Shown here: positions 13,545 through 51,335 of the stretch, piece after piece | How the letters are laid out: every line of letters starts with the position of its first letter | Numbering within the stretch: the stretch's first letter is position 1 | From: Pseudomonadota bacterium | GTDB taxonomy: Bacteria > Pseudomonadota > Alphaproteobacteria > RF32 > CAG-239 | DNA: 64,000 bases | Direction: 5' to 3' | Assembly: GCA_918234285.1 (NCBI GenBank) | Contig: CAKJXZ020000012.1 | Coordinates: 35,050 to 99,049 of the forward strand | Notes under the pieces: generated by a model | What the model saw: only the letters and a program-made list of their open reading frames with translations | What the model was told of the DNA's origin: nothing | Databases searched by the model: none | Made by a program: the position numbers and the translations under genes

Positions 13545-14621
13545 TTGGCGGGCTATCAATCCGGTCGCGGAGGGGTGGATAGCTACGGCGTAGACCACAG
13601 CGGTTTTACCACGCGCGATGAACTGGAATATCAAAGCGCGCGATTGGCCAGAGAAAATCAACTGGCGGAAGGTTTTGCTAAGCAAGGAATTGCCGAAGAA
13701 AACTACCCGCAGTATGGCACAAATTTTTGGGGTGGTTCGCCGGAAAATAACTACGGCTTCGGCACTTCAAATATTAAGCAAAATATTGAAAATATTACAA
13801 ACCGGTTGAACAACGGCGCAAACAGCGGGCAAGTCTTCGCAAATTCCGACCATTCTGTCAACACCGAAAGCTTAGTCGGTCAACCAAGCAGTTATTTTCA
13901 AAATAATAGCTCTGCTTTTGTAAATAATAACACCAGCGGCTTAGGAAATAACAATACAAGCGGTTTGAATAGTACTGCCACTGGCGGATTCAATAACGAC
14001 AGCACAAAACTTAATCAAAATAACTTGAGCGAAAATGGTACGAGTGAGGTGGATACATTACAACAATCTCAACAATTATCACAAATTCCGGAATGGCAAA
14101 AACCAGCATACAGCTCTACACACATGTATGCGTGGCAGAGAAATAAGCAACCACCCATATTGTGGCAAACTAATCAACAAGATATGCTTTCCCCCGGACG
14201 TGCAATTGATTATAAAAAATTGGCTGAGGGTATCTTGAATAACCAATCTGTACAGCCAGATATGATACAACATGATAATCAAAAAGGATATAACATTCGA
14301 AACGATAATAATTATGAGTGGACAAACTCAGAACCTTATGATCGTGGAGGAGATATAATATCAGTGTACAATAATTTTAGAAAAATAAACACAGAAAACC
14401 CAATTATATCACCAACATCATCTGGAAACAAAGTTACGGATTTTGTTGTTATACAAAGAATTAAAAAGTTGTATCCTCACTTGGCAAAAATGATAAGAGC
14501 ATATGATTTAGGTTACAGAGGGGCAGGTTATTATGATAATTTAAAAAGAGCATATCGCGAAAGTCACCGTTATGATAGAGTATTTTCTGATGAGGAACTT
14601 TTATCGTTGCAAAATCGGTAA
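13545..14621 (+). CDS. Putative polymorphic toxin A1 lacking its native promoter, RBS and ATG; conserved N-domain plus unknown C-terminal domain
   Basis: The first ~115 aa closely match the 46915 ORF but MDIWDEIK is missing. The TTG start has no RBS. The C-terminus is unrelated to the other copies. Confidence 0.65.
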   Translation: MAGYQSGRGGVDSYGVDHSGFTTRDELEYQSARLARENQLAEGFAKQGIAEENYPQYGTNFWGGSPENNYGFGTSNIKQNIENITNRLNNGANSGQVFANSDHSVNTESLVGQPSSYFQNNSSAFVNNNTSGLGNNNTSGLNSTATGGFNNDSTKLNQNNLSENGTSEVDTLQQSQQLSQIPEWQKPAYSSTHMYAWQRNKQPPILWQTNQQDMLSPGRAIDYKKLAEGILNNQSVQPDMIQHDNQKGYNIRNDNNYEWTNSEPYDRGGDIISVYNNFRKINTENPIISPTSSGNKVTDFVVIQRIKKLYPHLAKMIRAYDLGYRGAGYYDNLKRAYRESHRYDRVFSDEELLSLQNR

Positions 14622-14647
14622 TATTTGATTACAATTACATAAACCCC

Positions 14648-14732
14648 AAAAACAGAGAGTATGTAGCAGAATTTCTGCTTCTGCATATTGGGCACATATT
14701 AGGAATACTTCGCTACAACTCTCTGTTTTTTT
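14648..14732 (+). repeat. Long imperfect inverted repeat / terminator-like hairpin between toxin A1 and its candidate immunity gene
   Basis: AAAAACAGAGAGT-A-TGTAGC ... GCTACA-ACTCTCTGTTTTT followed by further Ts. Confidence 0.65.
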
Positions 14733-14762
14733 TGAAAACTGGAAATATGCGGAGAGTGTAAT

Positions 14763-15236
14763 ATGAAAAATATTGATAAAGAAGTTTGTATATTCGGCGG
14801 TTGTTATTTTGCAAGCGAATATATCATTTATATTTTTACTGGATTTTTACAATTTCTCATACAACATCTGCCGCAAAATTTGAATGCAATTTTTATTTTC
14901 TTGAGTGATGCTCTCACCATATTCTCCGGATTAATGTTTGTGCTGTTTGTGGTACTTTTATTACGGTATTTATTTACACAAAAGTCTTTATCGATTATTA
15001 GCAAAATTCACAACAAATTTCCGAAGATTTCGGTGTATTTGTATTATTTGGGGTATGCAGGTTATATTTTGCTTGCGCTGAATGTGTTGCTATTGATACC
15101 GCTTTATGCTATGAATTTGAGTGAAATTGTGCAAAATATCATCGTATGGACATTAACAGTCATTAATATTTTGGGATTATTATTCCCCCTTGTTTTTGCA
15201 AGTTATAAGGTATTTTACAAACCCAAAAGATGTTAG
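14763..15236 (+). CDS. Integral membrane protein (~4 TM), candidate immunity for A1
   Basis: GGAGAG RBS; four hydrophobic stretches; lies directly after the toxin C-terminus. Confidence 0.6.
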   Translation: MKNIDKEVCIFGGCYFASEYIIYIFTGFLQFLIQHLPQNLNAIFIFLSDALTIFSGLMFVLFVVLLLRYLFTQKSLSIISKIHNKFPKISVYLYYLGYAGYILLALNVLLLIPLYAMNLSEIVQNIIVWTLTVINILGLLFPLVFASYKVFYKPKRC

Positions 15237-15245
15237 ATAGATTAA

Positions 15246-15926
15246 CTCAATAACAGCGGATTTGGTAACGGTACAAATAACGGTCAAGTCTTTGCAAATT
15301 CTGATTATACCGTCAATACCGAAAGCCTAGTCGGCAAACCGAGCAGTTATTTTCAGAATGGTAATTCTGTTTTTGCAAATAACAATACCAGCAATTTGGA
15401 AAATAATAACACAAGCGGCGCTAATACAACAATAGGGCAACAGGATAATAATGTAGGAAGTAATAATTCTATTGTTCAAAGTATTACTGCATTAAATCCG
15501 ATTAATGCCGGTTATCAAATCGGACAGAAAATTGGTGAATTTGCTGCTGATACAAAGTTAGCATATGATTATTGGCAAAAGATGAATCAAACAGGAAACC
15601 AACTTGTTACAACGTTCGGTTCTGGACAAGGTGCTGATATAGATAATTATTACCATCCATTATTACAGTGCGAATTAGCAAAAATAAGTCCGCAAAGTCG
15701 AAATAATGGTATTGCTTTGGGTTATGCTAAAGAGTATCTGATGGATTATCCTAAAAAGAGGTTTTTACAACACCAAAGCCATGATGAAATTATGAAAGAT
15801 AGTAGAAAAGACTTGCAAAACAATCTTTATGGTAGTAACTTAGGGTATGATAATCCAAGCAGAAGCTGTGAGGATTTGTTGGATGACAGAAGAACACCCA
15901 ATATGCGCAAATTAGGCATAAAGTAA
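15246..15926 (+). pseudogene. Orphan toxin cassette A2 (no start codon) with SAA-like C-terminal domain
   Basis: Frame opens after TAA at 15243 and reads NNGQVFANSDYTVNTESLVGKPSSYFQN, the shared linker. The C-terminus has DNYYH..C...KE...DSRKDLQNNLYG...SC. Confidence 0.7.
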
Positions 15927-15996
15927 TTATCGAATGATATAGAGGGAGTTAACGTTATTTAATCCCCTCTATATTTATTACATGGAATGTGTTAAA

Positions 15997-16200
15997 ATGA
16001 AGAAAAATATATTAAAATCAATTCTGTATGTGGTTTATAAATGCGCATTGTATTTTATTGTGGCAACTTTTATTGCCGTTCTTTTTATACAAATATTTTA
16101 CCTCTATGAAGAAAACAAATTTATAGACGATTGTGTTAAAAAAGGAGATACCCGGGAACATTGTCAGAGTATTTGGTCTGAAATAGATGCCTTAAATTAA
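15997..16200 (+). CDS. Small membrane protein with CxxxGxxxExC motif, candidate immunity
   Basis: Hydrophobic helix then FIDDCVKKGDTREHC; paralogous to the next gene. Confidence 0.6.
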   Translation: MKKNILKSILYVVYKCALYFIVATFIAVLFIQIFYLYEENKFIDDCVKKGDTREHCQSIWSEIDALN

Positions 16201-16220
16201 AATTATAGAGGAGGATTGTG

Positions 16221-16421
16221 ATGAGCTTATTCAAAGATATATCAACAGACGTTATTAAACTATTGTGCTGGATTGGGTTCTTTATTGCATTATTTTTTAT
16301 TGCAACTACAGCTTTTTATTATTGGGATTTCTATATAAATTTGGAACAAAATACAAAATTGATTCAAGAATGTATGGATGAAGGTAATAGTGAAGAAGTC
16401 TGTAAAGGCAGAGTTTATTGA
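16221..16421 (+). CDS. Small membrane protein with CxxxGxxxExC motif, candidate immunity paralog
   Basis: RBS GAGGAGG; hydrophobic helix then LIQECMDEGNSEEVC. Confidence 0.65.
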   Translation: MSLFKDISTDVIKLLCWIGFFIALFFIATTAFYYWDFYINLEQNTKLIQECMDEGNSEEVCKGRVY

Positions 16422-16498
16422 ACTTCGAGGACATAGCAAACAAAATAACTTTACCTCTCAAAGTTAAATACAAAAGAGGTTGGTAATTTACATAATAG

Positions 16499-16530
16499 GC
16501 AAGAGTTGAAATATACTCTTGCTCTTTTTT
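16499..16530 (+). terminator. Intrinsic terminator
   Basis: GCAAGAGT-TGAAATAT-ACTCTTGC followed by TCTTTTTT. Confidence 0.6.
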
Positions 16531-16689
16531 ATTTACACTGTATTATATTCTTAATTCAACTTAAAATGGTGCAATTATGCTTAAAAATTTACTTCTGATG
16601 ATGAAAAACAATAAAGAAAAAACGGCTCCCCTCTGTTTTTGTGGATGCTGTGCTTCAATTTATTATGTTTGAGAACAGCGGAGAGTAAA

Positions 16690-17262
16690 ATGGTAACAAA
16701 AGATAGAATATATATGACATTTAAATATCTCGGGTGTTTTCTTGCATGCAATATTTTATTGTGGGCTATGATATGGCTTATTGCCGAATTAGACCAAGAC
16801 AAACTTGAGCTGATTGATTGCTTTGCGTTTGAATACGGATATATTACAAAAACACTTAGTTACCAAAGTTATTTACAAGGAGCTTGCACCTACCCGCAAA
16901 TATGCACGTGCGCCGTAAATGCCGAATGGATATTGTTTTTCTATATTTGGGCTTTGCCGATTTTTGTTTTTTATGAAGTTTTTCGGCGCAAAATCATTCC
17001 GGCACAATACACCTATTTGTTTGTTTTTGGCGAAATTGCTTTTTGGTCGGTTATATGTTTTTTATGCCAAGACAATGCACCCTTTTTATGGTTTCCGCTC
17101 GGGAATACTTACAAAATCATCGCACCTATGGCAATTATTATGCTCGCATTACACAGCTTGCCGCCGAAAGTACTTAAAGTGCTCTCTACAATCATCGGCA
17201 CGATTTACGGGTTGTATTGGGGAATTTTTATAGCAATGATTGTCCCGAACTTTTTCCGCTAA
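16690..17262 (+). CDS. Multi-TM membrane protein with Cys-containing loop; orphan immunity candidate, paralog of 48176..48751
   Basis: GGAGAG RBS; ALPIFVFYEVFRRKII aligns with IIPLYLLYDYVRRKIV; same downstream hairpin and junction. Confidence 0.65.
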   Translation: MVTKDRIYMTFKYLGCFLACNILLWAMIWLIAELDQDKLELIDCFAFEYGYITKTLSYQSYLQGACTYPQICTCAVNAEWILFFYIWALPIFVFYEVFRRKIIPAQYTYLFVFGEIAFWSVICFLCQDNAPFLWFPLGNTYKIIAPMAIIMLALHSLPPKVLKVLSTIIGTIYGLYWGIFIAMIVPNFFR

Positions 17263-17266
17263 AAGA

Positions 17267-17291
17267 AGGAGGCCACAGAGCCTCCTTTATT
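17267..17291 (+). terminator. Terminator hairpin, also present at ~48787-48810
   Basis: AGGAGGC-CACAGA-GCCTCCT-TTATT. Confidence 0.6.
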
Positions 17292-17303
17292 GTGTAATAT
17301 GAG

Positions 17304-17413
17304 TGGCGCAGAATTTCAGCAAGCAAGGAATAGCCGAAGAAAACTACCCGCAGTTCGGCACCAACTTTTGGGGCGGAACACCGGAAAATAACTACGGCTT
17401 CGGCGCCAACCCC
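17304..17413 (+). repeat. Truncated remnant of the conserved toxin N-terminal repeat (right end of locus A)
   Basis: Encodes AQNFSKQGIAEENYPQFGTNFWGGTPENNYGFG(ANP), near-identical to ~47060-47160. Confidence 0.9.
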
Positions 17414-17560
17414 GTATATCTCCTAAGGTTTGATTGATTTTAGGCAGAATAAATTTATTTAAATGATGTCATTATCCAAAAAATTTGTTTTTGACAATTT
17501 TTTACTTGATTTTTTGTACAAAATGTGTTTTTATAAGAAGACCAGAGTAGGAGAACATCA

Positions 17561-19036
17561 ATGACAGACGAGAATATGGAAGATATCACGGAAACGACGG
17601 AAGCGGGAGATACCGAGGATACACAAGTCGCGGAAGATATCGAGCAAGAAGCAGCGCAAGAGGAGGAAACTACGATTCCGCCTGACATGTCGTTGCAAAT
17701 GTTGGCAGAAACAATTGATCCTATCAGCCGTAAAGAGCTGTTTGAACACGGATTGAACATGTTGCAAATTTCGGCGGAGAAAAAGCCGATTGTTGCTGAA
17801 TATTATAAGAGTCTGCGTGATGAGTATTTCGGTCCGGATGTACCGGAAGAAGAAGCAATAAACGCGCCGATTGAAGATGAACGGCAACGAAATTTGGTTG
17901 GCGAATTTTTAGATAATAAGCTTGACTTGATTAAGTCAGATGTGGTGAGTCTTAATTCGGATAGTGTGAATAAAGCGTTTGCGGAAATTTTTACTTTGGT
18001 CGGTGTAAAAGTAAGTCCCGAAAAGTTGGAAGAAAGTTTTTACGATCAACTGTTTGAAACGCGTTGTGAGAATATTCCGGAACTGTTGGACGAATACAAA
18101 ATTTTGCAACTCAACCGCAGTTTATACCATATTTATGCCAACAAAAGCGGTACGTTGGCTCTGAACGGTATTATCTTGCAAATGGAAAAATACTATTCTC
18201 AAAAAGATATAACGCGTGAACAGTTGGCGCAGTTTTATTATAACATCGGTTGCATTTATGACGTTCATTCTTTGCAGAAAAATACCGAAAAGATGGTCAA
18301 AGAAGAACATATGTTGGCACTGAGTTATAAGCGTAAGGCTTTGGATAAAACCAGAAAGAATATGGAATTGATTTTGAATGTTCATCGTGACTGGTGTACC
18401 AACTACGACTATAAACCGCAGAAAATTCTCGATGCTTGCCATCGAGTAATCGATAATTCCGGCGACAGTCGAAGTCTGTATCAGGCCCATATGCTTTATG
18501 CCGAAACTCTGCAAGACTTTAGAGGCACCGAGGGTTTCGGTAGTCAGCGCGAAAAACGCGTGGCTTCAATTATCAAGCACTATCGCAAAGCGGTAAATTA
18601 TACCGAAAATGAAGAAGAAAAAATCGATATACTCGATATGATTTCCGCGCAGCAGAAAAATTACGATAAGCCGGCTTATATCCGTACGCGGATGGAAATG
18701 GCTTCGTTATTGAATTATCGCGCCAAAATCAGAGAATACAGTCGTTTGGTTGATGAAACCGATGATTTCAAATTGAAATCGTTTTTGTTTATGTCCGGAA
18801 TTAATGAGTTTTACGAACTCAGCGGTATTGATGACGAAGACCGCCAGTTGTATGACGATTTGGATGCCAAATTCCGCAAGACCATTGAGGATAACGGCGG
18901 TGATGCAAAAGTTATTGCCAAATTGAATGAATTGAAAAAAGAATACGGCACTGCAGATAAAAAAGAGCCGGAAATGTTATTTGTACGGGCATCAACCAGC
19001 GGACATGATTTTTTCGGTTCAGGTAAAGGCAGATAA
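17561..19036 (+). CDS. Hypothetical protein, acidic N-terminus, helical (TPR-like) body
   Basis: 491-aa ORF with AGGAG RBS; YYNIGCIY and HMLYAETL look TPR-like. Confidence 0.7.
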   Translation: MTDENMEDITETTEAGDTEDTQVAEDIEQEAAQEEETTIPPDMSLQMLAETIDPISRKELFEHGLNMLQISAEKKPIVAEYYKSLRDEYFGPDVPEEEAINAPIEDERQRNLVGEFLDNKLDLIKSDVVSLNSDSVNKAFAEIFTLVGVKVSPEKLEESFYDQLFETRCENIPELLDEYKILQLNRSLYHIYANKSGTLALNGIILQMEKYYSQKDITREQLAQFYYNIGCIYDVHSLQKNTEKMVKEEHMLALSYKRKALDKTRKNMELILNVHRDWCTNYDYKPQKILDACHRVIDNSGDSRSLYQAHMLYAETLQDFRGTEGFGSQREKRVASIIKHYRKAVNYTENEEEKIDILDMISAQQKNYDKPAYIRTRMEMASLLNYRAKIREYSRLVDETDDFKLKSFLFMSGINEFYELSGIDDEDRQLYDDLDAKFRKTIEDNGGDAKVIAKLNELKKEYGTADKKEPEMLFVRASTSGHDFFGSGKGR

Positions 19037-19050
19037 AAAGGAGAAAGATA

Positions 19051-19587
19051 ATGTCTCGTCGCTCTTGGATATTAAGTTTTTTGATTGTGCTCGCCGGATT
19101 GTTTTCGGCGCAGGCTCGAACTATGAAAATGCAACAAATTAACTGTGTTATGCGCGATTCAAAAGAATTTTGCACGTCGCTGAAACACAGGCCGTTGAAC
19201 GGTAAAGTGGCCGTTCAGAGTCCGGACGGTAATTTAGGCAGTATCAGCGAGTTCAAAAAGGGATATCGCCACGGCGAGAGTCTGTTTTACGATGGCAACG
19301 GCTATATGACCGAGAGAATTCTTTTCCGCGACGGCATGAAGGATGGAGTGTCCTTATATTATCATAAAAACGGTAAAGTTTGGATATCCGCGCCATATAT
19401 CAAAGCTTTGTTGGACGGTTCGGTTGATATATATGACGTAAACGGTAAAATTCGCGGCAAATTCAAATATGACAAGGGTAATTTAAAGTGGGGATATTGT
19501 AAACGCAAAGGTCAACATAAAGTTAAATATCCCAATCGCAAATCCTTTGTCGAAAACAACCAACTTGTTACATGCGGTCCAAAATGA
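19051..19587 (+). CDS. Exported MORN-variant repeat protein (YwqK-like)
   Basis: Signal peptide; repeats FKKGYRHGESLFYDGNG, FRDGMKDGVSLYYHKNGK, LLDGSVDIYDVNGK. Confidence 0.8.
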   Translation: MSRRSWILSFLIVLAGLFSAQARTMKMQQINCVMRDSKEFCTSLKHRPLNGKVAVQSPDGNLGSISEFKKGYRHGESLFYDGNGYMTERILFRDGMKDGVSLYYHKNGKVWISAPYIKALLDGSVDIYDVNGKIRGKFKYDKGNLKWGYCKRKGQHKVKYPNRKSFVENNQLVTCGPK

Positions 19588-20465: not shown

Positions 20466-22247
20466 GTGAAAATTAAACCGTTCCCGCAAACAGCTTTCAA
20501 ATATTTGCTACATGAATGTATAATACCGTTCAAGTGGGCATTTTTGATGTGTTTGTTGCTGGTGTTTGCCGAAACCGGTGTTCACAATCTGGTTACTTGG
20601 TTGGTCGCTCGCTTGGTGGACAGTATTAAATCGGGGGTATCGCCGGAAGCTTTGCACCGCGCGTTATGGATTATCGGGGCGCTGGTGGTAGGCGACATCA
20701 TCAATATCTTTTTACCGAAACAGGTTTTGATGTATCGGCAAAAGCATCTTTATTTTCCGGTACAGGAGAGTATTTACGGCCGTGCATTGTCCTATATTTT
20801 TGCCCATTCGGTAAATTATATCGTCAACAAGCAGACCGGCACCTTGCTCGCCAAAACCAATCAGATTACAAGCTTGCCACCCTTATTTTCGGTTATCATT
20901 ACGCAATTTTGGTGGTTAATCAGCGATATTAGCTTAAAAATAATCTTATTGACTGCTATCAATGTATGGCTTGGTATTTTATTTGTATCCTGTTCCGGAA
21001 TTGTCGCTATCGTAAACTACTATGCCAATAAACCGAGCGACCGACTTAATAATATGCAAAGCAAGGCAGAATCTTTGTATTCCGGCTGGTTGGTTGATAC
21101 TATTGCTAATATTCGCTTGGTTAAGCAATTCAATCGTTTAGACTATGAAAAAAAGCGATTGGCAACACTTTTACAGCAATATATCTCGATTAAAGTCAAA
21201 AATATGTTTGTCTGGTTTTCTTCCTATACCGGCGTTGGTTGCTTTATACATTTTTGCTCGGTTACGATGCTGACGTTTGCCGTATATTTATGGAGTAAAT
21301 CCTTAATCAATATCGGTGATATTGTTTTTGTTTTATTAACCATAAACAGTGGTTTTATGTGGCTGATGGAGTTATGTATTGATTATCGCCGCTTTATGAA
21401 TAATCTGGCGCATATTCAAGCCGGATTAGAGCCGTTTAACGATAGACACGAAATTGAAGATGCACCGGATGCCAAAGAGCTGAAAATTAAAAAAGGCAAA
21501 ATCGAATTTAAAAATGTCGGCTTTGCTTATCCTGAGCAAAAAAGAATTTTTGACGGCTTTAATTTAGAGATTAAAAGCGGTGAAAAAGTCGGTATCGTCG
21601 GCTTATCCGGCAATGGTAAAACCACACTGATTAATCTGTTGCAACGCGCATACGATATAGAGGAGGGGCAAATTCTGATTGACGGGCAGGATATTAAAAC
21701 CGTTACGCAATCAAGTCTGCACCAAAATTTGGCGATTATTCCGCAAGAAACCGTGCTGTTCCACCGTAGCCTTAAAGATAATATCGGGTACGGGGTTAAA
21801 ACCACTGATAAAAAAATCCGACAGGCCGCAAAAGTTGCTTGTGCCGATGAATTCATTAAGGCACTGCCCGACGGATACGATTCAATGGTCGGCGACAGGG
21901 GTTGCAAACTCTCCGGCGGAGAACGGCAACGCATTGCCATTGCCCGTGCGGTTTTGAGAAACAGCCCGATATTGATTTTAGATGAAGCTACCTCATCGCT
22001 TGACAGCGAGGCTGAAAGTATTGTTGCCGAGGCCATCAATAACTTACTCGGCAAACAAACGGTTATTGCGATTGCGCACCGCCTCTCTACCTTACGTAAA
22101 ATGGATAGGATTATTTATTTAGAGCAAGGTAAAGTGACGGAAGTCGGCACTTTTACGGAGTTGGCAAAAAAGAAAAACGGCAAATTTGCCAAGCTGTGGA
22201 AAATGCAACAGTTGGCGCAAAAGGAGGCGAGCGATGAAGTTATTTGA
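20466..22247 (+). CDS. ABC exporter half-transporter (TMD+NBD)
   Basis: Multi-TM domain; Walker A GLSGNGKTT, LSGGERQR, ILILDEATS, IAHRLS. Confidence 0.93.
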   Translation: MKIKPFPQTAFKYLLHECIIPFKWAFLMCLLLVFAETGVHNLVTWLVARLVDSIKSGVSPEALHRALWIIGALVVGDIINIFLPKQVLMYRQKHLYFPVQESIYGRALSYIFAHSVNYIVNKQTGTLLAKTNQITSLPPLFSVIITQFWWLISDISLKIILLTAINVWLGILFVSCSGIVAIVNYYANKPSDRLNNMQSKAESLYSGWLVDTIANIRLVKQFNRLDYEKKRLATLLQQYISIKVKNMFVWFSSYTGVGCFIHFCSVTMLTFAVYLWSKSLINIGDIVFVLLTINSGFMWLMELCIDYRRFMNNLAHIQAGLEPFNDRHEIEDAPDAKELKIKKGKIEFKNVGFAYPEQKRIFDGFNLEIKSGEKVGIVGLSGNGKTTLINLLQRAYDIEEGQILIDGQDIKTVTQSSLHQNLAIIPQETVLFHRSLKDNIGYGVKTTDKKIRQAAKVACADEFIKALPDGYDSMVGDRGCKLSGGERQRIAIARAVLRNSPILILDEATSSLDSEAESIVAEAINNLLGKQTVIAIAHRLSTLRKMDRIIYLEQGKVTEVGTFTELAKKKNGKFAKLWKMQQLAQKEASDEVI

Positions 22248-24021
22248 AAATATACCGAATATGCGTAAAGTGCCGTCAAATCCGCTGTTGTTTATGTGGG
22301 AGGCGATATACGGTGCGCGCAAGTGGGCGTTTATCGGCATGGCTTTAGCCTTCGGGCTGCAGTTGATGAAAATTTATGTGCCGGTATATTTTTCGCGGAT
22401 GATTGATTATTTTACCAAAATAACGCCGGAAGAATTTGCTTGGGAAAAAATGTGGTGGTTCTTGGCGGCCATTTTGGCTTCATACATTGGGCAATCGGTA
22501 TTCAGAATGATTCGTGAGTTATTGGAAGAAAACAATGTGCGGATTTTCATGGATGCTAAAATTAAACTGTTTGCGGTGGATTACTTGGCCAAACATTCGG
22601 AAAATTACTTTTCTTCACAAAAAACCGGACAATTATCGCAGAAAGTAACGACTTGCGCTGAGAAGGTTACAACGGTACATGGTCAAATCTCGCGTCTTTA
22701 CAGCAATATTTTCAACGTTTTGATTAACTTTTTCTATATTGGTTGTGTCAGCTTATGGATTTTGCTCTTGGTGGTTATTTTTGGCTCAATATCTGCTTTT
22801 GCTTCGTATAAATCGAGCATTAAATTACGTGCTTTGAGTAAAGATAATGATAATATATTTGATGATTTTAATGGTGTTTTAGCCGATAGTATCGGTAATG
22901 CCTTGAATGTGAAGGCCGGCGGCAGTGAAGATTATGAGATTTCTTTTGTTAAGAGTGTTTTTGATAAATACAAAAATACAGCTTATGCAAGTCTTAGCAG
23001 ATTTCAAGACAGTCTTCGTTTTCAACGGCTAATGGTCTGTCTGTTTGGAATTTGCGCTTTGTTGTTGCTGATTTATCTGTGGTATCACGAAAAAGTGAGT
23101 ATCGGCGATGTAACCTTGGTGTTGATGTTGATGAGGATGGTTATGGATTGCTTGGTTGCAGTACTTGGGAATATTTGCAAGCTAAATACTTTTTTGGGGG
23201 CGTTACAGGCGGCAATGATGCCGTTTGTGGTCAAACATGAGATTATTGACGCACCACACGCCAAAGCGCTTAAAATCGGCGGTGGCGCGATTGAGCTTAA
23301 AAAAGTTAAATTCGGATACGACAACAAAAAGGTGTTCAATAACTTTTCGCTAAAAATCAAAGCCGGAGAAAAGGTCGGTATTGTCGGCGCGTCGGGCAGC
23401 GGCAAGAGCACCTTGATAAATTTGTTGCAACGCGCATACGATATAGAGGCCGGCGAAATTTTGATAGACGGGCAGAATGTAGCGAAGGTTAAGCAAAACA
23501 GCTTGCACGATGCCATCGCGCTTATTCCGCAAGATACGTCGCTGTTTCATCGCACCGTCAGTCAAAATATAGCTTACGGCAAGCTGAATGCCAAGCAAAG
23601 CGAAATTGAAAAGGCGGCGCAAAAGGCCTATGCCGACGAGTTTATCAAAGAACTGCCGAAAGGCTATCAAACCAAAGTAGGGGAAAAGGGGGTTAAACTT
23701 TCCGGCGGACAAAGGCAACGCGTGGCCATCGCCCGCGCGATTTTGAAAAACTCGCCGATATTGTTGTTGGACGAGGCTACTTCGGCGCTCGACAGCGAGG
23801 CGGAATTTTATATTCAAAAAGCGTTGGACGGGCTGATAAAAAACAAAACGGTTATTGCTGTGGCGCACCGCTTATCGACCCTCAAAAATATGGATAGAAT
23901 CGTGGTGCTGGAAAAAGGGCGTATTATTGAAGACGATACGCCGGAGAATTTGCTTAAATCAGCCGGTAAATTTGCCGAATTGTGGCAGATTCAGATGAAT
24001 GCCGAAGCAGGAAAGGACTGA
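22234..24021 (+). CDS. ABC exporter half-transporter (TMD+NBD), paralog and likely heterodimer partner
   Basis: GASGSGKST, LSGGQRQR, LLLDEATS, VAHRLS; AGGAGG RBS; overlaps the upstream gene. Confidence 0.93.
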   Translation: MKLFENIPNMRKVPSNPLLFMWEAIYGARKWAFIGMALAFGLQLMKIYVPVYFSRMIDYFTKITPEEFAWEKMWWFLAAILASYIGQSVFRMIRELLEENNVRIFMDAKIKLFAVDYLAKHSENYFSSQKTGQLSQKVTTCAEKVTTVHGQISRLYSNIFNVLINFFYIGCVSLWILLLVVIFGSISAFASYKSSIKLRALSKDNDNIFDDFNGVLADSIGNALNVKAGGSEDYEISFVKSVFDKYKNTAYASLSRFQDSLRFQRLMVCLFGICALLLLIYLWYHEKVSIGDVTLVLMLMRMVMDCLVAVLGNICKLNTFLGALQAAMMPFVVKHEIIDAPHAKALKIGGGAIELKKVKFGYDNKKVFNNFSLKIKAGEKVGIVGASGSGKSTLINLLQRAYDIEAGEILIDGQNVAKVKQNSLHDAIALIPQDTSLFHRTVSQNIAYGKLNAKQSEIEKAAQKAYADEFIKELPKGYQTKVGEKGVKLSGGQRQRVAIARAILKNSPILLLDEATSALDSEAEFYIQKALDGLIKNKTVIAVAHRLSTLKNMDRIVVLEKGRIIEDDTPENLLKSAGKFAELWQIQMNAEAGKD

Positions 24022-25031: not shown

Positions 25032-25835
25032 ATGAATAAGATTGCAAAATTGCTGAAATGGGGAGTTTTATTGGGTTCTATTCTGCTTTTTGAAGCGGTT
25101 ATTTACGAACCTTACAGCCTGAAGATAACTTCGTATGATTTGCAAAATCCGCAGCTTTCCGGCCTTAAAATCGTGTTTGCGGCGGATTTTCATATTGCAC
25201 CGTACGGTTGGGAAAAGCGGCGATTAAACAGGATTATCGACACCATAAACAAACAAAAAGCTGATTTGGTTATTTTGGGCGGAGATTACGTGAACCGGCA
25301 TAATAAAACGGGAACTATGCCACCGGAGTATATTGCCGCCGCCTTGCAACGGATTACCGCTCCAAAGGTGGCGGTGCTGGGCAATCATGATTCTTATTAC
25401 GGCAAAAAAGAAGTCAAGGGGGCTTTGGAAAATGCCGCAATTCCCGTATTGGATAACAGCAACCTCTCAATCAATCTGCAGGGCAGGGAAGTATATGTTG
25501 CCGGCGTGAGCGATTATGATACGGATAAGCCGGATATAGAAAAGGCTGTGCAAAATACCCAAACACCGCTGATTTTTGTTACCCATTCGCCCGATGTGTT
25601 CGTTAATCTCAAAGACGAGGCAGATATATCCTTTGCCGGACATACCCACGGCGGGCAGATTGTTTTGCCGTTTTGGGGCGCGTTGGTAGTCAACACCGAC
25701 AGCGGCAGAAAATACACTTACGGCTTGTTTATGGAATACGGCAAACCGCGGATAGTGTCTTCCGGTTTGGGTACCAGCATTTTGCCGGTGCGCTTCAATA
25801 ATCGTCCGGAGATTGTAGTGGTGGAATTTGAATAA
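25032..25835 (+). CDS. Metallophosphoesterase (YkuE/YaeI type)
   Basis: ADFH, GGDYV, GNHD, THSPD, GHTHGGQ. Confidence 0.9.
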   Translation: MNKIAKLLKWGVLLGSILLFEAVIYEPYSLKITSYDLQNPQLSGLKIVFAADFHIAPYGWEKRRLNRIIDTINKQKADLVILGGDYVNRHNKTGTMPPEYIAAALQRITAPKVAVLGNHDSYYGKKEVKGALENAAIPVLDNSNLSINLQGREVYVAGVSDYDTDKPDIEKAVQNTQTPLIFVTHSPDVFVNLKDEADISFAGHTHGGQIVLPFWGALVVNTDSGRKYTYGLFMEYGKPRIVSSGLGTSILPVRFNNRPEIVVVEFE

Positions 25836-25871
25836 AAAAAATCCCTCGCGGCGGTTAAGCGGCGGGGGATT
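25834..25871. repeat. Repeated hairpin/terminator AAAAAAATCCCTCGC..GTTAAGC.GCGGGGGATT (copies at ~26896-26933 and partial at 26703)
   Basis: Near-identical copies visible; A-run flanks the hairpin; located at gene ends. Confidence 0.75.
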
Positions 25872-26890: not shown

Positions 26891-26943
26891 AATAATAAAA
26901 AAATCCCTCGCAGCAGTTAAGCAGCGGGGGATTAGAAGTTTAA

Positions 26944-43899: not shown

Positions 43900-43912
43900 T
43901 CCTCATCTATAC

Positions 43913-44742: not shown

Positions 44743-44894
44743 ATTTATTTCCTTTTAATAATTTTAATTGTTCAAACAGGTATAACATAATCACATTTTT
44801 TTATTTAAGCAAGTAAAAAAATATAGTTCAAAATAAAAGTGGACTTTAAATTATTTTGCGTTAAGATTAACGGCAATAGAGGGGAGAAATCGAA

Positions 44895-45554: not shown

Positions 45555-46606
45555 TGGATTTAAGCTATTTGTTTTATTTGAGCAGCGGTTTGTTTTTGGG
45601 GTGGTCGTTGGGTGCCAATGATGCCGCCAATATTTTTGGTACGGCCGTCGGCTCTAAAATGGTACGCTTTTCTACTATTGCTGCGGTGGCCAGTATTTTT
45701 GTGGTTATCGGGGCGGTGTTCGGCGGTTCCGGTACCAGTGAAACCCTGGGCGCACTCGGCTCGGTGAATGCGTTGGCCGGAGCGTTTATGGTGGCTCTTT
45801 CGGCGGCATTGGCCGTGTATATGATGTTGCGCACCGGTTTAACCGTATCCACTTCGCAGGCGATTGTCGGTGCGATTGTCGGTTGGAACCTTTATGCCGG
45901 AAAACCTACCGATTATACTACTTTGGCAGAGATTGTCGGTACCTGGACCACCTGTCCGCTGTTATCAGGCATAGTGGCGATTATCTTGTATCTGTGTTTG
46001 AAAAAGTTGCGGAAGTGCTCGAGTATGCACCTCTTGACGCGTGATCAGGTGACGCGCATCGGATTGATTATTACCGCAGCGGTCGGAGCTTATGCGCTCG
46101 GCGCCAACAATATTGCGAATGTGGTGGGGGTGTTTATGAAATCGTGCCCGTTTAAGCCGCTTCATTTCGGTAATTTTACCACGCTTAATCCGCACCAGGT
46201 GCTGTTTTTGCTTGGTGCTATAGCGATTTGTATCGGTATTTGGACTTATTCTCGCAAGGTAATTAAAACCGTGGGCAACAGCCTGATGCGGATGTCGCCG
46301 TCGGTGGCGCTGATTATTGTTTTGGCGCAAGCTACGGTGTTGTTGCTGTTTTCGTCGGTAAGCCTGCATGATTGGTTGGCAGCCTCTTCTTTGCCGACTA
46401 TTCCGTTGGTGCCGGTATCAAGCACTCAGGCGGTTATCGGCGCAGTTATCGGTATCGGACTGATAAAAGGCGGGCGCGGCATTAATTGGGGCATTATCGG
46501 CAAAATCGTCACCGGTTGGGTGGTGGCGCCGCTGATGGCGATGTTGATTTGCTTTATCTGCCTGTTTTTCTTGGAAAACGTGTTTAACCAAACAGTATTT
46601 ATGTGA
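45554..46606 (+). CDS. pit: Inorganic phosphate transporter, PiT family
   Basis: GANDAAN and GANNIAN signatures; VSTSQAIVG and PVSSTQAVIG. Confidence 0.92.
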   Translation: MDLSYLFYLSSGLFLGWSLGANDAANIFGTAVGSKMVRFSTIAAVASIFVVIGAVFGGSGTSETLGALGSVNALAGAFMVALSAALAVYMMLRTGLTVSTSQAIVGAIVGWNLYAGKPTDYTTLAEIVGTWTTCPLLSGIVAIILYLCLKKLRKCSSMHLLTRDQVTRIGLIITAAVGAYALGANNIANVVGVFMKSCPFKPLHFGNFTTLNPHQVLFLLGAIAICIGIWTYSRKVIKTVGNSLMRMSPSVALIIVLAQATVLLLFSSVSLHDWLAASSLPTIPLVPVSSTQAVIGAVIGIGLIKGGRGINWGIIGKIVTGWVVAPLMAMLICFICLFFLENVFNQTVFM

Positions 46607-46700
46607 TTTAGCGATTTTTTTGCTCGCGTTTATTTTTGCCTTCAAAATAAGATTTTTCATTTTATACACCGTTTTATTTTATATTTTTCTTATTTTAAAC

Positions 46701-46914
46701 TTGACAGAGATATAAAGTTGTGTTATTCGTATATTGTCTCTGTTGTTGACATCATGTTTGTTTTCTTTCAATAAACCGCAATGGCTTTCGGGCTTATGCA
46801 GTTTGTTTTGATGTCGCGATAGAATAATAAATAAATTATTGTATAAGAATTTAATTATAAAATTAAAGGAGTAATAAAAATGAAAATAGAAAACTTTTAT
46901 AAAAGGAGGCAAAT
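46701..46914 (+). promoter_or_regulatory. Putative promoter/leader of the head toxin gene, with tandem RBSs
   Basis: TTGACA at 46701; AAGGAG before ATG 46880 (18-codon uORF); AGGAGG before ATG 46915. Confidence 0.45.
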
Positions 46915-48224
46915 ATGGATATTTGGGACGAAATAAAGACATTGGCGGGCTATCAATCCGGCCGCGGAGGGGTGGATAGCTATGGGGTTGACCACAGCGG
47001 ATTTTCAACGCGTGATGAGTTGGAATATCAAAGTGCGCGATTAGCCAGAGAAAATCAACTGGCGGAGAATTTCAGCAAGCAAGGGATAGCCGAAGAAAAC
47101 TATCCGCAGTTCGGCACTAACTTTTGGGGAGGAACGCCGGAAAATAACTACGGCTTCGGCACTTCAAACATTAAGCAAAATATCGAAAACGTTACAAATC
47201 GGCTTAATAACAACACAAATAACGGGCAAGTCACTACAAATTCCGATTATACAGCCAACACCGAAAGCTTGGTCGGAAAACCGAGCAGTTATTTTCAAAA
47301 TAACAACACTTTCGGTGGGTTTAGCAATAACAACACAGGCAATACAGCTAATACGATAGGACAATCAAATAGTAATACTATGGGAAATAATAACCCAAAT
47401 ACTTGGAGTAATACCGGCGGTTTTGGCGGATATACAAGCAACGGATTTAGCACAAATGCGAATATGGGGACTAATGCAAACTTTGGCGCAAATCCGAGCT
47501 TTGCTGCAAGTCCAAGCTACTGCACTACGCCGACGTTACAAAATCAAACCCCGACGCCGTGGAGTTGAGTTATAACGAACCACAAACGACACCAACCCCG
47601 TGGAACAATCCGTCAGCACAGGTTACACCGTCTCCGTGGGTCGATAATTCTCTGACCAAAAATCAACGTATTCTAGCACTAAGATACGGAAAACCACTAA
47701 ACCTATATATGGGAAATGCATGGAATGCGAACTATGAATGGCCTTGGTACACAATGAATTGGTTGGGTAAGTATTATGTAGATAAGCATAATAATGATAT
47801 TGAAAAATATGCTATTCAAAATAATATAAATCCAGACTTAGTTCGTGCGGTAATGTATAATGAAGGCGCTACAGGACATAAAGGTATATTCAACTATTTA
47901 TGGGATGTTTTGGGATGGTCAGGTAGTCAAATGCCGATGAATATTCAAGGTAAGACATGGGGAGATTTTGACGGCAAACACTATGATACTGACATACCTC
48001 AGCAGAATATTGAATTAGGAACAAAGGTTTTGAAACAAATGCAAAATTCCTTAAATGAACCTACGCCGGATAGAGTTGGAACATTATGGAATGAGACCGG
48101 AGCCAATAATATAAATGACGTTGGTGCAAGAGTGAAGACGGCTTATGATACAAAACCTTGGTTAGGAGAAAAACAATGGGAGCAAAAGCTATTGGAGTTC
48201 TTTTTCGGAAACAAGAAAAAATAA
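46915..48224 (+). pseudogene. Head toxin B1: conserved N-domain + Asn-rich linker + SLT/lysozyme-like C-terminus, frameshifted by a 5-bp duplication
   Basis: ORFs 46915..47568 and 47559..48224 fuse in frame if one GAGTT of GAGTTGAGTT (47562-47571) is removed. The CT has IEKYAIQNNINPDLVRAVMYNE...QNIELGTKVL...WN. Confidence 0.8.
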
Positions 48225-48751
48225 TACGTTATATTTTGGCGGCAACATGGTTCGTTTTTGCAACCATTGTAGCCGTCACATTATATCGTGCCGGTATGGA
48301 AACCAATAATAATGGAGAATCTTGTGATTATAATATATGGGAAAAAGGTTTAATATACCAATGGATATGGTACGGAGGTGAACCATGTATCTTTTCCTTA
48401 GAATATTACATAACCGTATCTTTTTTTATAATTCCGCTCTATCTCTTATATGACTATGTTCGGCGGAAGATAGTAGGATTTAATCCGGATATTCTTTGGC
48501 GGATGGCAGAAGTAGGAGTATGGTTTGTCTTAAATTGGGGATATTTATTGTGGCTGACCGCAACGGATTACGGAACATTAAATTGGACAATGGGTTGGAC
48601 ATCTTTTGTCGGCACTTTGCTGTTTTTTGTTCCGATTATTCTATTGACAAGCGGTGTGCGTTTTTTAAGCAATCGTGCGGTTTTATGGACATTCTTCGGA
48701 ATTCTGCTTGCTTATTTCGGCTTGGTGTTTTTAGCCATAGTATATCAATAA
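48176..48751 (+). CDS. Membrane protein with Cys-containing periplasmic loop, candidate immunity for B1
   Basis: AGGAG RBS and ATG 48176 overlap the toxin 3' end; multi-TM; paralog of 16690. Confidence 0.7.
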   Translation: MGAKAIGVLFRKQEKIIRYILAATWFVFATIVAVTLYRAGMETNNNGESCDYNIWEKGLIYQWIWYGGEPCIFSLEYYITVSFFIIPLYLLYDYVRRKIVGFNPDILWRMAEVGVWFVLNWGYLLWLTATDYGTLNWTMGWTSFVGTLLFFVPIILLTSGVRFLSNRAVLWTFFGILLAYFGLVFLAIVYQ

Positions 48752-48822
48752 TTCAACAAGGTAGCGACATTCACAACTAAAAGTAAAAGAGGCTGCAAAG
48801 CCTCCTTTGTTCCGCAATATGA

Positions 48823-49968
48823 GTGGTACGATATTATAGCCAAATGGGGATAGCACAAGAAAACTACCCGCAGTTTGGTACAAACTTTTGGGGAGGAACG
48901 CCGGAAAATAACTACGGCTTCGGCACTTCAAACATTAAGCAAAACATTGAAAGTGTTACAAACCGGTTGAATAATGGCGGTTTTAGTGGCGGCACAAATA
49001 ACGGATTTAATAACAACACAAATAACGGTCAAGTTTTTGCAAATTCAAACTATACGGTCAACACCGAAAGCTTAGTCGGCAAACCAAGCAGTTATTTTCA
49101 AAATAATAACACTTTCGGTGGGTTTAGCAATAACAACACAGGCAATACAGCTAATACGATAGGACAATCAAATAGTAATACTATGGGAAATAATAACCCA
49201 AATACTTGGAGTAATACCGGTAGCTTTGTCAGAAATAAAAGCAACGGGCCTAACGCAAATACGAATTTTGGCGCAAATCAGAGTTTTGCAACAACGTCAA
49301 CGCAGCAGATGACCACCCCGACGCCGTGGAGCAATCCTGCGGAACAAATCAGTCCGGTGCCGTGGCGGAATAATCAAACAGTAACACCATGGGCAGGAGG
49401 TTATGATTTAAGCGATGAATACACTATTACTATAAATTCAAATCCACAACCTTATATATTTTCTGAAGATATGCGCAATCGCCTGGGTGAGTTGGAATCT
49501 GGTAATAATTATACTAAAGTGAATTCAGAAGGTGGTGGTATCGGAGCGTTAGGCAGATATCAAATTCGTCGTGATGGTTTTAAAGATTCCGGATATATCA
49601 ATGCAAACAATCAATGGGCTGGAAAAAATGATATTAATTCTGTGGATGATTATCTAAACAATTCAGCACTTCAAGAACAAGCATTAGACGATTTTATGAA
49701 AGCAAAATACCATCAGCTCCAAAATAATGGTTCTCGCCAATATTTAGGTTATCCAATAAAGGGAATTGTTGACAACTTTAATATTACCGATACAGGACTT
49801 TTAGCGGCAAGTCATCGTGAAGGGGCCGGAGCTGTTCATAATTATTTATCTCATCTTGAAAAAGATGAAAATGGGCGATACTACTTGAATTATGATAAAG
49901 TCTCTGACCCCCGCCAACGAGAGATGTTTAAGCGAATTGAAACAAGGTTGAGAAAATTTGAAAAATAG
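48823..49968 (+). pseudogene. Orphan toxin cassette B2 (5'-truncated) with lysozyme-like C-terminal domain
   Basis: Begins mid-conserved domain right after a terminator, with no RBS. The CT has LGELESGNNY..VN...ALGRYQ...YLNNSALQE...GLLAASHREGAG. Confidence 0.75.
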
Positions 49969-50563
49969 TTTGTTGATATTACTTATAGCTTTATCTTGCG
50001 GCTCAGCTTATGCTTTGCCGCAAGATTGGCCATGTAAAGATTTTGAACTCCAAAAATGTGAACAAACCGAAAAATCAACCGACTATATTGTATATTGCGG
50101 AAAAGATAATGACTATGCATTGAAAGTAAATGTGTTTTGGCAGAAAGATAAGGAAGCCGATGATTGCGGCACTGCAGGATGCGATGGCACAATTAAAAAT
50201 TTAAAAACAGAACAAGAGGAAAATTTGCGTTTCTTTTGCAAAACTGAAAATAATTACAATATAGCAAAGTGCCATATTCGAGTAGGAGAAGAATATATAT
50301 TACACAAAGTTACAGATGATTATTATCAAGTTAATTTATGCAATAATACTTTTTTTAAGTATGTTAATTTTAATGAATGTTCCGAATGTATGTGTATAGT
50401 TCACGATTCAAGAAAAAAAGGCGGTGATTCTGATTTTTATATGGGATGCGGAATTGGAAATAGTAATAAATTACATTGTATGACCGGAAATATTTACGAA
50501 GAGAAATATAATCCGACCAATGATAATGATTTTAAAAACTGTATTAGTTTAAGGATAAGATAG
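49958..50563 (+). CDS. Exported Cys-rich protein, candidate immunity for B2
   Basis: TTG start overlapping the toxin stop; Sec signal (SAYA|LP); many Cys including DDCGTAGC. Confidence 0.7.
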   Translation: MKNSLLILLIALSCGSAYALPQDWPCKDFELQKCEQTEKSTDYIVYCGKDNDYALKVNVFWQKDKEADDCGTAGCDGTIKNLKTEQEENLRFFCKTENNYNIAKCHIRVGEEYILHKVTDDYYQVNLCNNTFFKYVNFNECSECMCIVHDSRKKGGDSDFYMGCGIGNSNKLHCMTGNIYEEKYNPTNDNDFKNCISLRIR

Positions 50564-50781
50564 AATTTTCTGATTTTGATAATTTTCCATTACCATTAAA
50601 AGAAGTGTTGCTGGATATTCAGTATAATACTGGAAACTTAAACCAACAAAATTGGCCAAATTTATACCGTGCAACCAGAAACCGCGACGTTAATGGCATT
50701 GTATCAAACGTGCATCGCAGAGACGTGGCTCAAAGACGTAATAATTGGACAAGAGATACGGCGCGCTCAATCCGATTCTGA
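50563..50781 (+). pseudogene. C-terminal remnant of a T4-lysozyme/pesticin-like muramidase (toxin B3)
   Basis: Unannotated frame EFSDFDNFPLPLKEVLLDIQYNTGNLNQQNWPNLYRATRNRDVNGIVSNVHRRDVAQRRNNWTRDTARSIRF*; no start codon. Confidence 0.65.
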
Positions 50782-51213
50782 TGGAACGTAATCAGGAGGA
50801 GTAACACAGTATTTTGCTGCATGCATTTCATTTTCGGAAAAATCTTCTATTTTTCGATAATTGTATTCTAATATGCGTAGGCAATCTGGCATAAATAAAC
50901 CTTTTATTACATATGTGTAATATTCTTTCTTTTTTTCGTTACGCCATGTAACATCGCACAACAGGGTAATGTGGTCTTGTTTATTTTCAACAAGTTCACA
51001 TTCCCCTGTGCTATCAACAAGATTTTTATCTAATGGTGTTCTAAAATCAATTGTTTTAGGTGTCAAATAAGTCCACCCCACAGTGCTACTCAATGGTTCT
51101 AACGGTTGATAAAAAATTGGATTAACAAACTCTTGTTTATTTACATTATCATCTGCCCGAGCATTTGCGCTTAAACTCAAAAACAGCCCTAAAATCAAAA
51201 CCAACTTTTTCAT
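50767..51213 (-). CDS. Exported protein, candidate immunity for B3 (convergent, overlapping)
   Basis: GGAG RBS; signal MKKLVLILGLFLSLSANARA; 4 Cys; own TTGACT promoter-like sequence at 51266; 15-nt 3' overlap with the muramidase remnant. Confidence 0.7.
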   Translation of the reverse strand: MKKLVLILGLFLSLSANARADDNVNKQEFVNPIFYQPLEPLSSTVGWTYLTPKTIDFRTPLDKNLVDSTGECELVENKQDHITLLCDVTWRNEKKKEYYTYVIKGLFMPDCLRILEYNYRKIEDFSENEMHAAKYCVTPPDYVPSESD

Positions 51214-51287
51214 TTTTATACTCCATAAAATTGTAATTATAATAAAATATATATTGAAAAAGTCAACAAAGGATTATCCTTAACCGA

Positions 51288-51335
51288 TACAAACTTTTGG
51301 GGCGGCTCGCCGGAAAACAACTACGGCTTCGGCAC
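51288..51335 (+). repeat. Minimal remnant of the conserved core (right end of locus B)
   Basis: TACAAACTTTTGGGGCGGCTCGCCGGAAAACAACTACGGCTTCGGCAC = TNFWGGSPENNYGFG. Confidence 0.9.

Follow-up and report, generated by a model that had tools for sequence, protein, structure and literature searches.

A 64,000-nucleotide (nt) stretch of DNA (contig C12, positions 35050-99049; hereafter the window) contains two arrays of putative polymorphic toxin and immunity genes, in which a 42-base-pair (bp) core recurs in direct orientation. The stretch comes from a 2.0-Mb genome in 71 contigs, of a genus of uncultured Alphaproteobacteria known from metagenome-assembled genomes. The core encodes a motif of the N-terminal domain shared by the toxins (N-domain), and we consider it probable that cassettes in these chromosomal arrays are exchanged by homology-driven recombination, with a terminal N-domain fragment as the fixed right border. 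Both islands in the window are insertions of about 4-5 kb that are absent from close relatives, whose empty sites carry no core, and at all three arrays of the genome (two in the window and one on contig C69) another strain keeps the terminal 3' junction with different DNA to its left. Beyond this, we infer how the recombination proceeds, whether cassettes were gained or lost in each event, what the toxin and immunity genes do and how the toxins are exported.

Structure of the two arrays

Features of the first island are given below; model positions refer to a 297-position DNA profile of the N-domain (nhmmer), in which the core occupies positions 205-246, and ORF stands for open reading frame.

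13509..17415, + strand: island A, a putative toxin/immunity array; sites empty in relatives, boundaries good to about 10 nt
12854-13508: left neighbour, an outer-membrane beta-barrel gene with its terminator
13533..14621, + strand: c1, putative toxin gene with N-domain, linker and a C-terminal part without Pfam match (model positions 14-296)
13722..13763, + strand: core copy 1, codons 69-82, NFWGGSPENNYGFG
14763..15236, + strand: putative immunity gene of c1, 157 amino acids (aa), reading as a membrane protein, without Pfam match and assigned from position only
15267..15926, + strand: core-less orphan cassette whose homology starts in the linker (13812-13963 against 15267-15418, 79%)
15982..17262, + strand: three small or membrane ORFs (15982-16200, 16218-16421, 16639-17262)
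17268..17306, + strand: terminator-like hairpin GGAGGCCACAGAGCCTCC, T run and ATATGAGTGG
17302..17406, + strand: c2, terminal remnant with N-domain codons 49-83 (model positions 144-248)
17363-17404, + strand: core copy 2
Right neighbour: promoter of the gene 17561-19036

The second island comprises the following.

46609..51344, + strand: island B, an array between the stop codon (46606) of a PHO4-family transporter gene and the rimP promoter
46609..46914, + strand: region upstream of the full-length toxin gene; contains AAATAAGATTTTTCATT (46645) and TTGACA (46701)
46915..48224, + strand: c3, full-length putative toxin gene split by a frameshift (about 47560) into two ORFs
47119..47160, + strand: core copy 3
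48158..48826, + strand: immunity-like membrane protein gene (48158-48751), hairpin AGAGGCTGCAAAGCCTCC (48788) and ATATGAGTGG (48817)
48824..49968, + strand: c4, 5'-truncated orphan starting at about N-domain codon 49-53, with linker and a C-terminal part without Pfam match (model positions 146-296)
48883-48924, + strand: core copy 4
49958..50563, + strand: putative immunity gene of c4, its N-terminus lipoprotein-signal-like by eye, without Pfam match
50767..51288, - strand: reverse-strand gene (50767-51213), whose N-terminus reads as a signal peptide, and its upstream region
51289..51344, + strand: c5, terminal remnant with codons 68-84 (model positions 185-253), then 11 nt, then the chromosomal flank
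51292-51333, + strand: core copy 5

The left ends of both islands are the first bases of a toxin-gene upstream region (TTGCC...AAATAAGATTTTTCATT), which in island B (46609..46914) is 89% identical to that of the gene on C69. The c1 gene lacks its promoter region and the first seven codons: AAATAAGATTTTTCATT at 13519 runs straight into codon 8, and the earliest possible start is a TTG at 13545. The first 17 bases of the usual upstream region are what meets codon 8 here, the TTGACA-containing region and the ATG being gone; c1 may be silent or read from upstream. The two ORFs of c3 correspond to the N-domain with the linker (46915-47568) and to a weakly SLT-like part (47559-48224; 18.1 bits, cut-off 21.3). 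Contigs of runs X3 and X4 lack five letters at 47562, which gives c3 a single frame, while X1 and X2, the likely source runs, have the window version.

Two kinds of 5' junction stand out. Hairpin, T run, ATATGAGTGG and codon 49/53 follow one another in both c2 (17268..17306) and c4 (48788-48826), and in front of c5 the upstream region of the reverse-strand gene abuts the core at codon T68 (type I junction). From 51145 on, this reverse-strand region shares 90% identity with the final part of the C69 array. The two islands also share gene content: the 3' end and terminator of ORF 16639-17262 are homologous to the immunity-like gene 48158-48751. The gene run of 15982..17262 is also found in G007:C5.

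Empty sites and alternative alleles

Locus B is empty in G001 (RimP 98% identical) and G054, where 149-152 nt separate the PHO4 stop codon from rimP; against these empty sites, the window is homologous up to 46608 and again from 51345, which is 11 nt past the c5 core. Locus A is empty in G054, G046 and G009, whose flanking genes lie 221-295 nt apart with no N-domain match, and here homology resumes at 17416 (against G046) or 17429 (against G054), that is, at most 11 nt after the c2 core.

Occupied sites differ between strains as well. Runs X3 and X4 come from a different study than X1 and X2, and the comparison is one of contigs, not reads. It covers X1 to X4; runs X5-X20, in which few of the sequence words occur, enter no claim on habitat or anything else. 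In contig 21 of X3 and contig 25 of X4, locus B runs from 48152 (or 48741) to 48866, continues with 13 other letters and then follows the window from 51288 toward rimP, which the X3 contig reaches. This allele holds one fragment, with the left junction of c4 and the core and right flank of c5, and lacks 2.4 kb that comprise the c4 toxin part, its downstream ORF and the reverse-strand gene. The alleles of locus B thus differ by one 2.4-kb cassette bounded by two cores. Since exact identity between the c4 and c5 cores extends over 17 nt at most, a chimera of 31-mer assembly is unlikely.

At the C69 site, G001 has next to gyrA a fragment that breaks, as on C69, at codon 77 and has the flank found there, but its 5' side is c4-type and that of C69 is type I. 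For locus A, the metagenome sequence L096 aligns with 17337-17800 at roughly 90% (a by-eye estimate); the alignment takes in the core, crosses the break and the promoter and reaches into gene 17561. In place of the hairpin junction, L096 shows, left of codon 60/61, the start of a reverse-strand gene with its upstream region (a type-I-like arrangement), and the same record has a full-length gene, L097, at a distance of about 1.2-1.6 kb. With the same 3' junction and a different 5' junction, exchange at each site must have taken place within the 30-70 nt of N-domain that both alleles have in common, so that crossovers do occur in the core. The preliminary description of this DNA had proposed that cassettes are gained or lost by crossover at the core, leaving a duplicated core at the array end, and the alleles at the three sites agree with that proposal. 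Two further joints, 47212 to 49019 and 47311 to 51145, probably stem from the paralogous C69-type locus and were not used, and an exact scan of metagenome contigs for the junction of c5 with its flank gave no matches.

The core as a protein motif

The five direct copies reported earlier for the window are indeed present. The 24-base 3' half of the core, CCGGAAAAYAACTACGGCTTCGGC, occurs without mismatch on the + strand at 13740, 17381, 47137, 48901 and 51310 (no match in 100 shuffles), and a repeat finder places the five copies in one 54-nt family (D6; 80-100% identity). The whole genome has seven copies (none expected), the additional two both lying on C69. As had also been stated, a remnant of the core closes each locus of the window: c2 and c5 have no toxin part behind them and lie at most 11 nt from the junction of island and chromosome. 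The related statement that homology ends at or just after CTACGGCTTCGGC is true of c2 and c5 but not of c1, c3 and c4, in which it extends past the core through TSNIKQNIENVTNRLNN and the linker.

The core encodes YPQ.GTNFWG..ENNYGFG, the best-conserved peptide motif of the N-domain. In a 39-sequence alignment the residues F70, W71, G72, N78, G80 and F81 are invariant, and all 21 invariant columns fall within residues 12-86. Among the homologues listed, 119 of 120 have N[YF]G[FY][GS], the remaining one reading NYGFR, and in all 120 conserved sequence (x-S-N-I...) continues past the motif (TSNI in 59, SSNI in 19, TSKI in 14, ASNI in 7, others in 20). The motif thus lies inside the conserved domain, about 17 residues ahead of the variable linker, and the core is a protein motif within a domain and not a domain border. 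Because conserved sequence continues past the core, c2 and c5 are cut in mid-domain and are not fusions to the variable part of another sub-family.

Conservation, symmetry and break positions of the core

The 3' half of the core had been described as nearly invariant at third codon positions, which applies inside this genome (over its seven copies, two of the eight wobble positions in the 3' half are variable, as against five of the six in the 5' half) but not across genomes. We compared synonymous diversity in 15 full-length copies, a close sub-family from this genome and its relatives, and in 20 distinct copies made up of these and five from metagenomes. In the 15, the core reached 0.322 against 0.300 in the flanks and its 3' half 0.280 against 0.305, and 32 of 84 equal-sized windows were as low as the 3' half or lower. 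In the 20, the values were 0.347 against 0.305 for the core and 0.312 against 0.311 for the 3' half (47 of 84 windows as low or lower). The expected excess of synonymous conservation over the flanks was therefore not found in either set, and we read the near-invariance within the genome as recent copying between copies and not as constraint on a nucleotide site. The lowest synonymous diversity among the 20 copies lies in codons 77-89 (e.g., 47143-47181 in the window), 0.237 against 0.323, with 3 of 79 windows as low or lower; this stretch was chosen post hoc and spans the end of the core and the next seven codons.

An upstream GCCGAAG had been noted as an inverted repeat of the terminal CTTCGGC in three copies. 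It is present at 13692, 17333 and 47089, and the two arms pair in the minimum-energy DNA fold of c1, c2 and c3 (z -1.9 to -2.75). As a feature of a site it does not hold: the left arm is missing from four of the seven copies (c4, c5, C69b and the C69 terminal fragment) and also from the sub-families reading GITENYPQ.

The 5' limits of truncated copies lie at model positions 105-112 (5 copies), 144-156 (5), about 173-185 (about 13), 191-199 (about 9) and 220 (1), so that they cluster just ahead of the core (about 173-199 of 297, about 22 copies). Several of these 5' junction types recur in distant genomes, and independent events are fewer than copies. Fragments end on the 3' side at 230, 238, 247, 248 (c2), 252, 253 (c5), 254, 261, 262, 268, 269, 273-275 (5 fragments), 279, 287 and 289-293. 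Array ends elsewhere are thus spread over about 60 nt (positions 230-293) and do not share the single core position suggested by the two loci of the window. In G016:C31 and G019:C21 the remnants seemed to stop precisely behind NYGFG, but by eye their homology goes on with small indels; nhmmer nevertheless places the end of the G016:C31 remnant at position 252.

A recombinase that co-occurs with the system, also suggested earlier, did not emerge in or beside the loci. No recombinase family was found among the ORFs scanned between 10 and 51 kb, and the tyrosine recombinase family PF00589, the only recombinase family searched genome-wide, has no match on the 99-kb contig of the window, its nearest match on C69 lying 15 kb from the array.

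Orphan cassettes on C69 and in relatives

The C69 locus consists of a full gene, an orphan, a reverse-strand gene and, at the end, a decayed half core. Its reverse-strand gene has the signal-peptide-like N-terminus and the upstream region in common with that of locus B. The linker type of c3 is that of the orphan C69b, and the linker type of c4 is that of the full gene C69a, as in an exchange of tips. Like c4 and C69b, many copies in relatives are 5'-truncated and start at codons 49-69. The array plan is one whole or nearly whole N-domain gene followed by orphans that keep about 50-150 nt of N-domain around the core.

Among 12 arrays from relatives, each with at least 3 kb beyond the last match, eight end in a short fragment (L046, L048, L051, L052, L053, L054, L055 and L056) and four have none (L038, L039, L041 and L050), a count biased upward because these arrays were picked for several contig matches, which favours fragment-bearing ones. 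Downstream of four of these eight fragments, no more than 1 kb away, is rpoC, truA, mfd or a Bax1-I gene, and downstream of a fifth a gene for a YadA-anchor adhesin.

Reverse-strand genes with the shared signal-peptide-like stretch and about 75 nt of upstream sequence were seen in the window (51145-51288), at C69:6007-5870 and in L038, L043, L051, L065, L094/L095 and L096. Their promoter abuts the core at codon 68 or 60/61, and the genes diverge after the shared N-terminal stretch (148 aa against 299 aa); given this divergence after a common start, they look polymorphic too. Further orphan-like pieces consist of linker only (blocks ESLVGKPSSYFQNNN and TPTPW), at 15267-15418 in the window and in G000 at C36:3669-3866 and C24:76239-76550, which makes the linker a second joining place for cassettes.

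At a site matching the C69 array, L091 (G054:C6:1-600) has the toxin-gene upstream region driving another ORF (MSKTRDNLYQ...) without N-domain. The G001 allele of the C69 site (L090; G001:C10, about 19.6-22.5 kb) has reverse-strand genes that by eye are of XRE type and ImmA/IrrE type (HEIGH motif), which suggests mobile-element content.

How the arrays may turn over

Illegitimate joins probably made the first junction at each site. Later exchange would then be of RecA type, or proceed by short-homology recombination between direct repeats. One crossover would use the long homology on the left and the other a short stretch of core, either in an orphan or in the fragment at the array end. In this way the terminal fragment would stay in place as a fixed right-hand border, and whatever lies to its left would be replaced over time. 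A RecA protein is encoded on C71. Whether a single-core circle integrates or a linear donor array takes part in a double crossover, the product would be the same, and our data cannot separate the two.

Several points weigh against homology-driven exchange. Very little homology can serve the crossover on the right: 46-68 nt at most, and only 15 identical nt if the locus B allele is a deletion from the arrangement in this genome; the homology available is at or below the minimum length for efficient RecA recombination in E. coli. Most joins across repeats are unbridged among the contigs listed. Five of about 19 remnants, and both islands of the window, end within 8 nt past the core (247-254), which simple homology does not predict and which may in part reflect the way copies were detected. 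Core-less copies are hard to detect, so that the centring on the core is partly a detection effect, and the count of fragment-bearing arrays is inflated by the choice of arrays described above. The toxin and immunity roles themselves are putative.

The core could instead be a true site-specific site inside a coding sequence, similar to those of integrons or to att sites, with a recombinase encoded elsewhere and cassettes that are excised as circles and inserted at any core. Such a site would account for cassette-sized allele differences bounded by two cores, for the ends of both islands 0-11 nt after CTTCGGC along with those remnants that stop close behind the core, and for the inverted repeat of 7 nt that pairs in the fold of three copies; there are, moreover, 12 tyrosine-recombinase matches elsewhere in the genome. 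However, synonymous diversity is the same in core and flanks, the left arm is gone from most copies, remnant ends scatter, and orphans also begin in the linker, at codons 36-38 and at 49-53. The empty sites have no core, and no recombinase is encoded near the arrays. A joint in X3 and X4 that goes back 4174 nt, from 51274 to 47101, resembles the junction of a circle or tandem; it lies upstream of the core, at codon 64/65, and as an ordinary orphan junction type in other genomes it was rejected as evidence of a circle. An integron-like system would combine a fixed crossover with an extra conserved site or structure, whereas here the ends vary, synonymous diversity is ordinary and the inverted repeat is found in three of seven copies. 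We regard a site of this kind as very unlikely, and give equally little credence to its more specific form, in which the core with the type I junction is the closure point of a circular toxin-immunity cassette inserted by a dedicated recombinase encoded elsewhere. If true, this would be an integron-like capture system with its attachment site inside a protein-coding motif.

The core fragments might also be decay products or scars of illegitimate joins without any later role, their centring on the core being an effect of detection. The scatter of remnant ends fits this idea, as do the stops, frameshifts and indels in L040, L052, G016:C31, G019:C21 and the C69 terminal fragment, the reliance of detection on a conserved motif, and the 11 nt between core and flank, which are not the same in c2 and c5. 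In Vibrio cholerae, illegitimate displacement has been put forward for arrays of effector and immunity genes (PMC5361080). Yet the same 3' junction occurs with non-homologous 5' junctions at three independent sites, which requires exchange inside an already formed fragment, and the alleles of locus B differ by exactly the segment between the cores. Nor is the core the most G+C-rich patch, codons 15-18 being richer; a simple preference for G+C-rich microhomology is thus unsupported, and we discarded it as a cause of the clustered ends. On balance we consider decay by itself unlikely. That the arrangement is an assembly artefact, with repeats mis-joined in a metagenome-assembled genome, is scarcely credible. 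Contigs of X1 and X2 do break at 47117-47305, 48912-48958 and 51217-51255, and several contigs from relatives have an end inside the core (G007:C28, G007:C69, G006:C97), but contig 8 of X1 spans 51255 across c5 into rimP, and contig 5 of the same run is continuous from the immunity gene past the hairpin into c4. Junctions of these kinds are found again in independent genomes and metagenomes, and the G001 and L096 alleles come from other assemblies. Exchange by homology between N-domain segments is thus the reading we prefer.

The putative toxin family

From their domain plan we infer that the loci are arrays of polymorphic toxins with immunity genes. The N-domain of about 95 residues (MDIWDEIKTLAGYQSG...YPQFGTNFWGGTPENNYGFGTSNIKQNIENVTNRLNN) is followed by an Asn/Gly/Ser/Thr-rich linker with the two conserved blocks ESLVGKPSSYFQNNN and TPTPW and then by unrelated C-terminal parts, in proteins of 300-450 aa. 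It was matched by 235 of 268 candidate proteins (E <= 0.001); the few homologues with a source name are hypothetical proteins of metagenome-assembled genomes of Alphaproteobacteria. A match was found in 20 of 24 other genomes of the genus and in none of 16 genomes from other genera of the class.

Seven sampled homologues each have at least one C-terminal family above the Pfam cut-off, with Tlde1 and PG_binding_1 among the secondary matches below it. The families are GH108 with PG_binding_3, YkuD/Tlde1, Pesticin, T6SS_VgrG3-like_C and SAA, and all identified domains except SAA act on peptidoglycan. A conserved N-region thus combines with C-termini from five unrelated Pfam groups. The C-terminal parts encoded in the window have no Pfam match, save the sub-threshold SLT similarity of 47559-48224, and a search of PDB sequences gave no match for c4 and one match at E 0.47 for the SLT-like part. 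Small ORFs reading as signal-peptide or membrane proteins follow each C-terminal part and are, from their position alone, putative immunity genes.

Neither the N-domain nor the whole proteins of the window match a Pfam family at E <= 0.1, and this includes the conserved regions of CdiA, Rhs and MafB. These are a TPS domain and FHA repeats with VENN in CdiA, YD repeats with DPxGL in Rhs, and DUF1020 with a signal peptide in MafB. An ESM Atlas search with the N-domain returned one match at 0.75, which was uninformative. A structural model of the N-domain with three helices (mean predicted local distance difference test, pLDDT, 69.8; predicted template-modelling score, pTM, 0.61) found no usable fold match in a VIA search against 48,161 chains (best Z 4.1).

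No signal peptide was seen on the toxins by eye. TssC/VipB (PF05943), the sole apparatus family searched, had no match in any of 50 genomes of the genus (35 with a completeness of at least 90%), and the E. coli control matched. This argues that the toxins are not type VI effectors. The arrays represent an unnamed and new polymorphic toxin family within a known kind of system, a family defined by a compact N-domain without family or fold match.

Other features of the window

The genes between the two loci are housekeeping genes and include those for ClpXP, GAPDH, PGK, a CckA-like kinase, an Hda-like protein and a MipZ-like protein. A very long ORF (2-10120, at least 3372 aa) is open at the window start and repetitive, rich in Ala, Thr and Gly, with a C-terminus that by eye resembles a trimeric autotransporter anchor. 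Two tandem paralogous ABC exporter genes (ABC_membrane and ABC_tran) occupy 20466-24021, with repeat families D7 and D10 between them. A 37-nt element, AAAAAAATCCCTCGC...GGGGGATT, resembling a shared terminator hairpin, occurs at 25835-25871 and 26897-26933 (92% identical).

Comparison with known systems

In integrons, attI recombines with attC through IntI, and promoterless cassettes, each bounded by a short repeat, stand behind one expressed position. The arrays described here resemble them in outline, as cassettes pile up behind one position and are bounded by copies of a short repeat. They differ in that the arrays have no integrase gene next to them, the repeat belongs to a coding sequence and is conserved at the protein level, a conserved hairpin is lacking and the breaks vary.

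The remaining comparisons draw on portions of the cited papers. Pesticin and bacteriocins of the ColM type combine an N-terminal uptake module with a C-terminal domain that targets the cell wall and have a linked immunity gene (PMC3390615, PMC5821083). Domain order and cell-wall targets are similar here, and some members of our family have a Pesticin domain, whereas the N-domain has no family or fold match, no TonB box was identified and the genes stand in chromosomal arrays with orphans.

The Rhs system of Salmonella Typhimurium is close in its logic: an orphan tip moves onto the full gene by recombination in a shared stretch of 522 bp at 95% identity (PMC3967940). As there, a full gene is followed by a 5'-truncated module of tip and immunity gene that shares the conserved stretch, although this stretch amounts here to about 50-150 nt, and to 46-68 nt in terminal fragments, against the 522 bp given in PMC3967940. 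Unlike Rhs, the proteins are small, their conserved part has neither a Pfam match nor YD repeats, TssC was found in none of the 50 genomes of the genus, and the arrays usually end in a toxin-less fragment. In the maf islands of Neisseria, silent mafB-CT cassettes each have an immunity gene, and comparison of genomes shows exchange of tips between cassette and full gene (PMC4287609). Small non-filamentous polymorphic toxins with a conserved N-region and a short conserved motif are common to both systems. MafB, as presented in PMC4287609, has a signal peptide, and its motifs (VSGDF, VKYDT, DWVKN) mark the border between conserved and variable parts; in our family the motif lies inside the conserved domain, no signal peptide was seen by eye, and a mafA-like partner gene is absent. 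In the type VI secretion clusters of Vibrio cholerae, new modules push old ones in the 3' direction, for which homologous together with homology-facilitated illegitimate recombination has been proposed, without a specific integration site (PMC5361080). Leftover arrays toward the 3' end are a shared trait, but those of V. cholerae consist of immunity genes and are linked to type VI secretion (PMC5361080), whereas here toxin tips remain as well and an N-domain fragment marks the border.

The simplest account of the arrays is thus homology-driven exchange, as known from the orphans of Rhs, CdiA and MafB (as far as treated in PMC3967940 and PMC4287609), and the recombination logic itself is expected for such loci. 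The role of the fragment as a border was not found in the Rhs, Maf and Vibrio array literature compared, in the portions available and without a dedicated literature search. Seen against these systems, the empty sites and the three sites at which one junction is kept while the content has changed provide unusually clean natural evidence of turnover in an orphan-cassette array, in which a short terminal fragment of a domain probably serves as a lasting right-hand border for cassette exchange.

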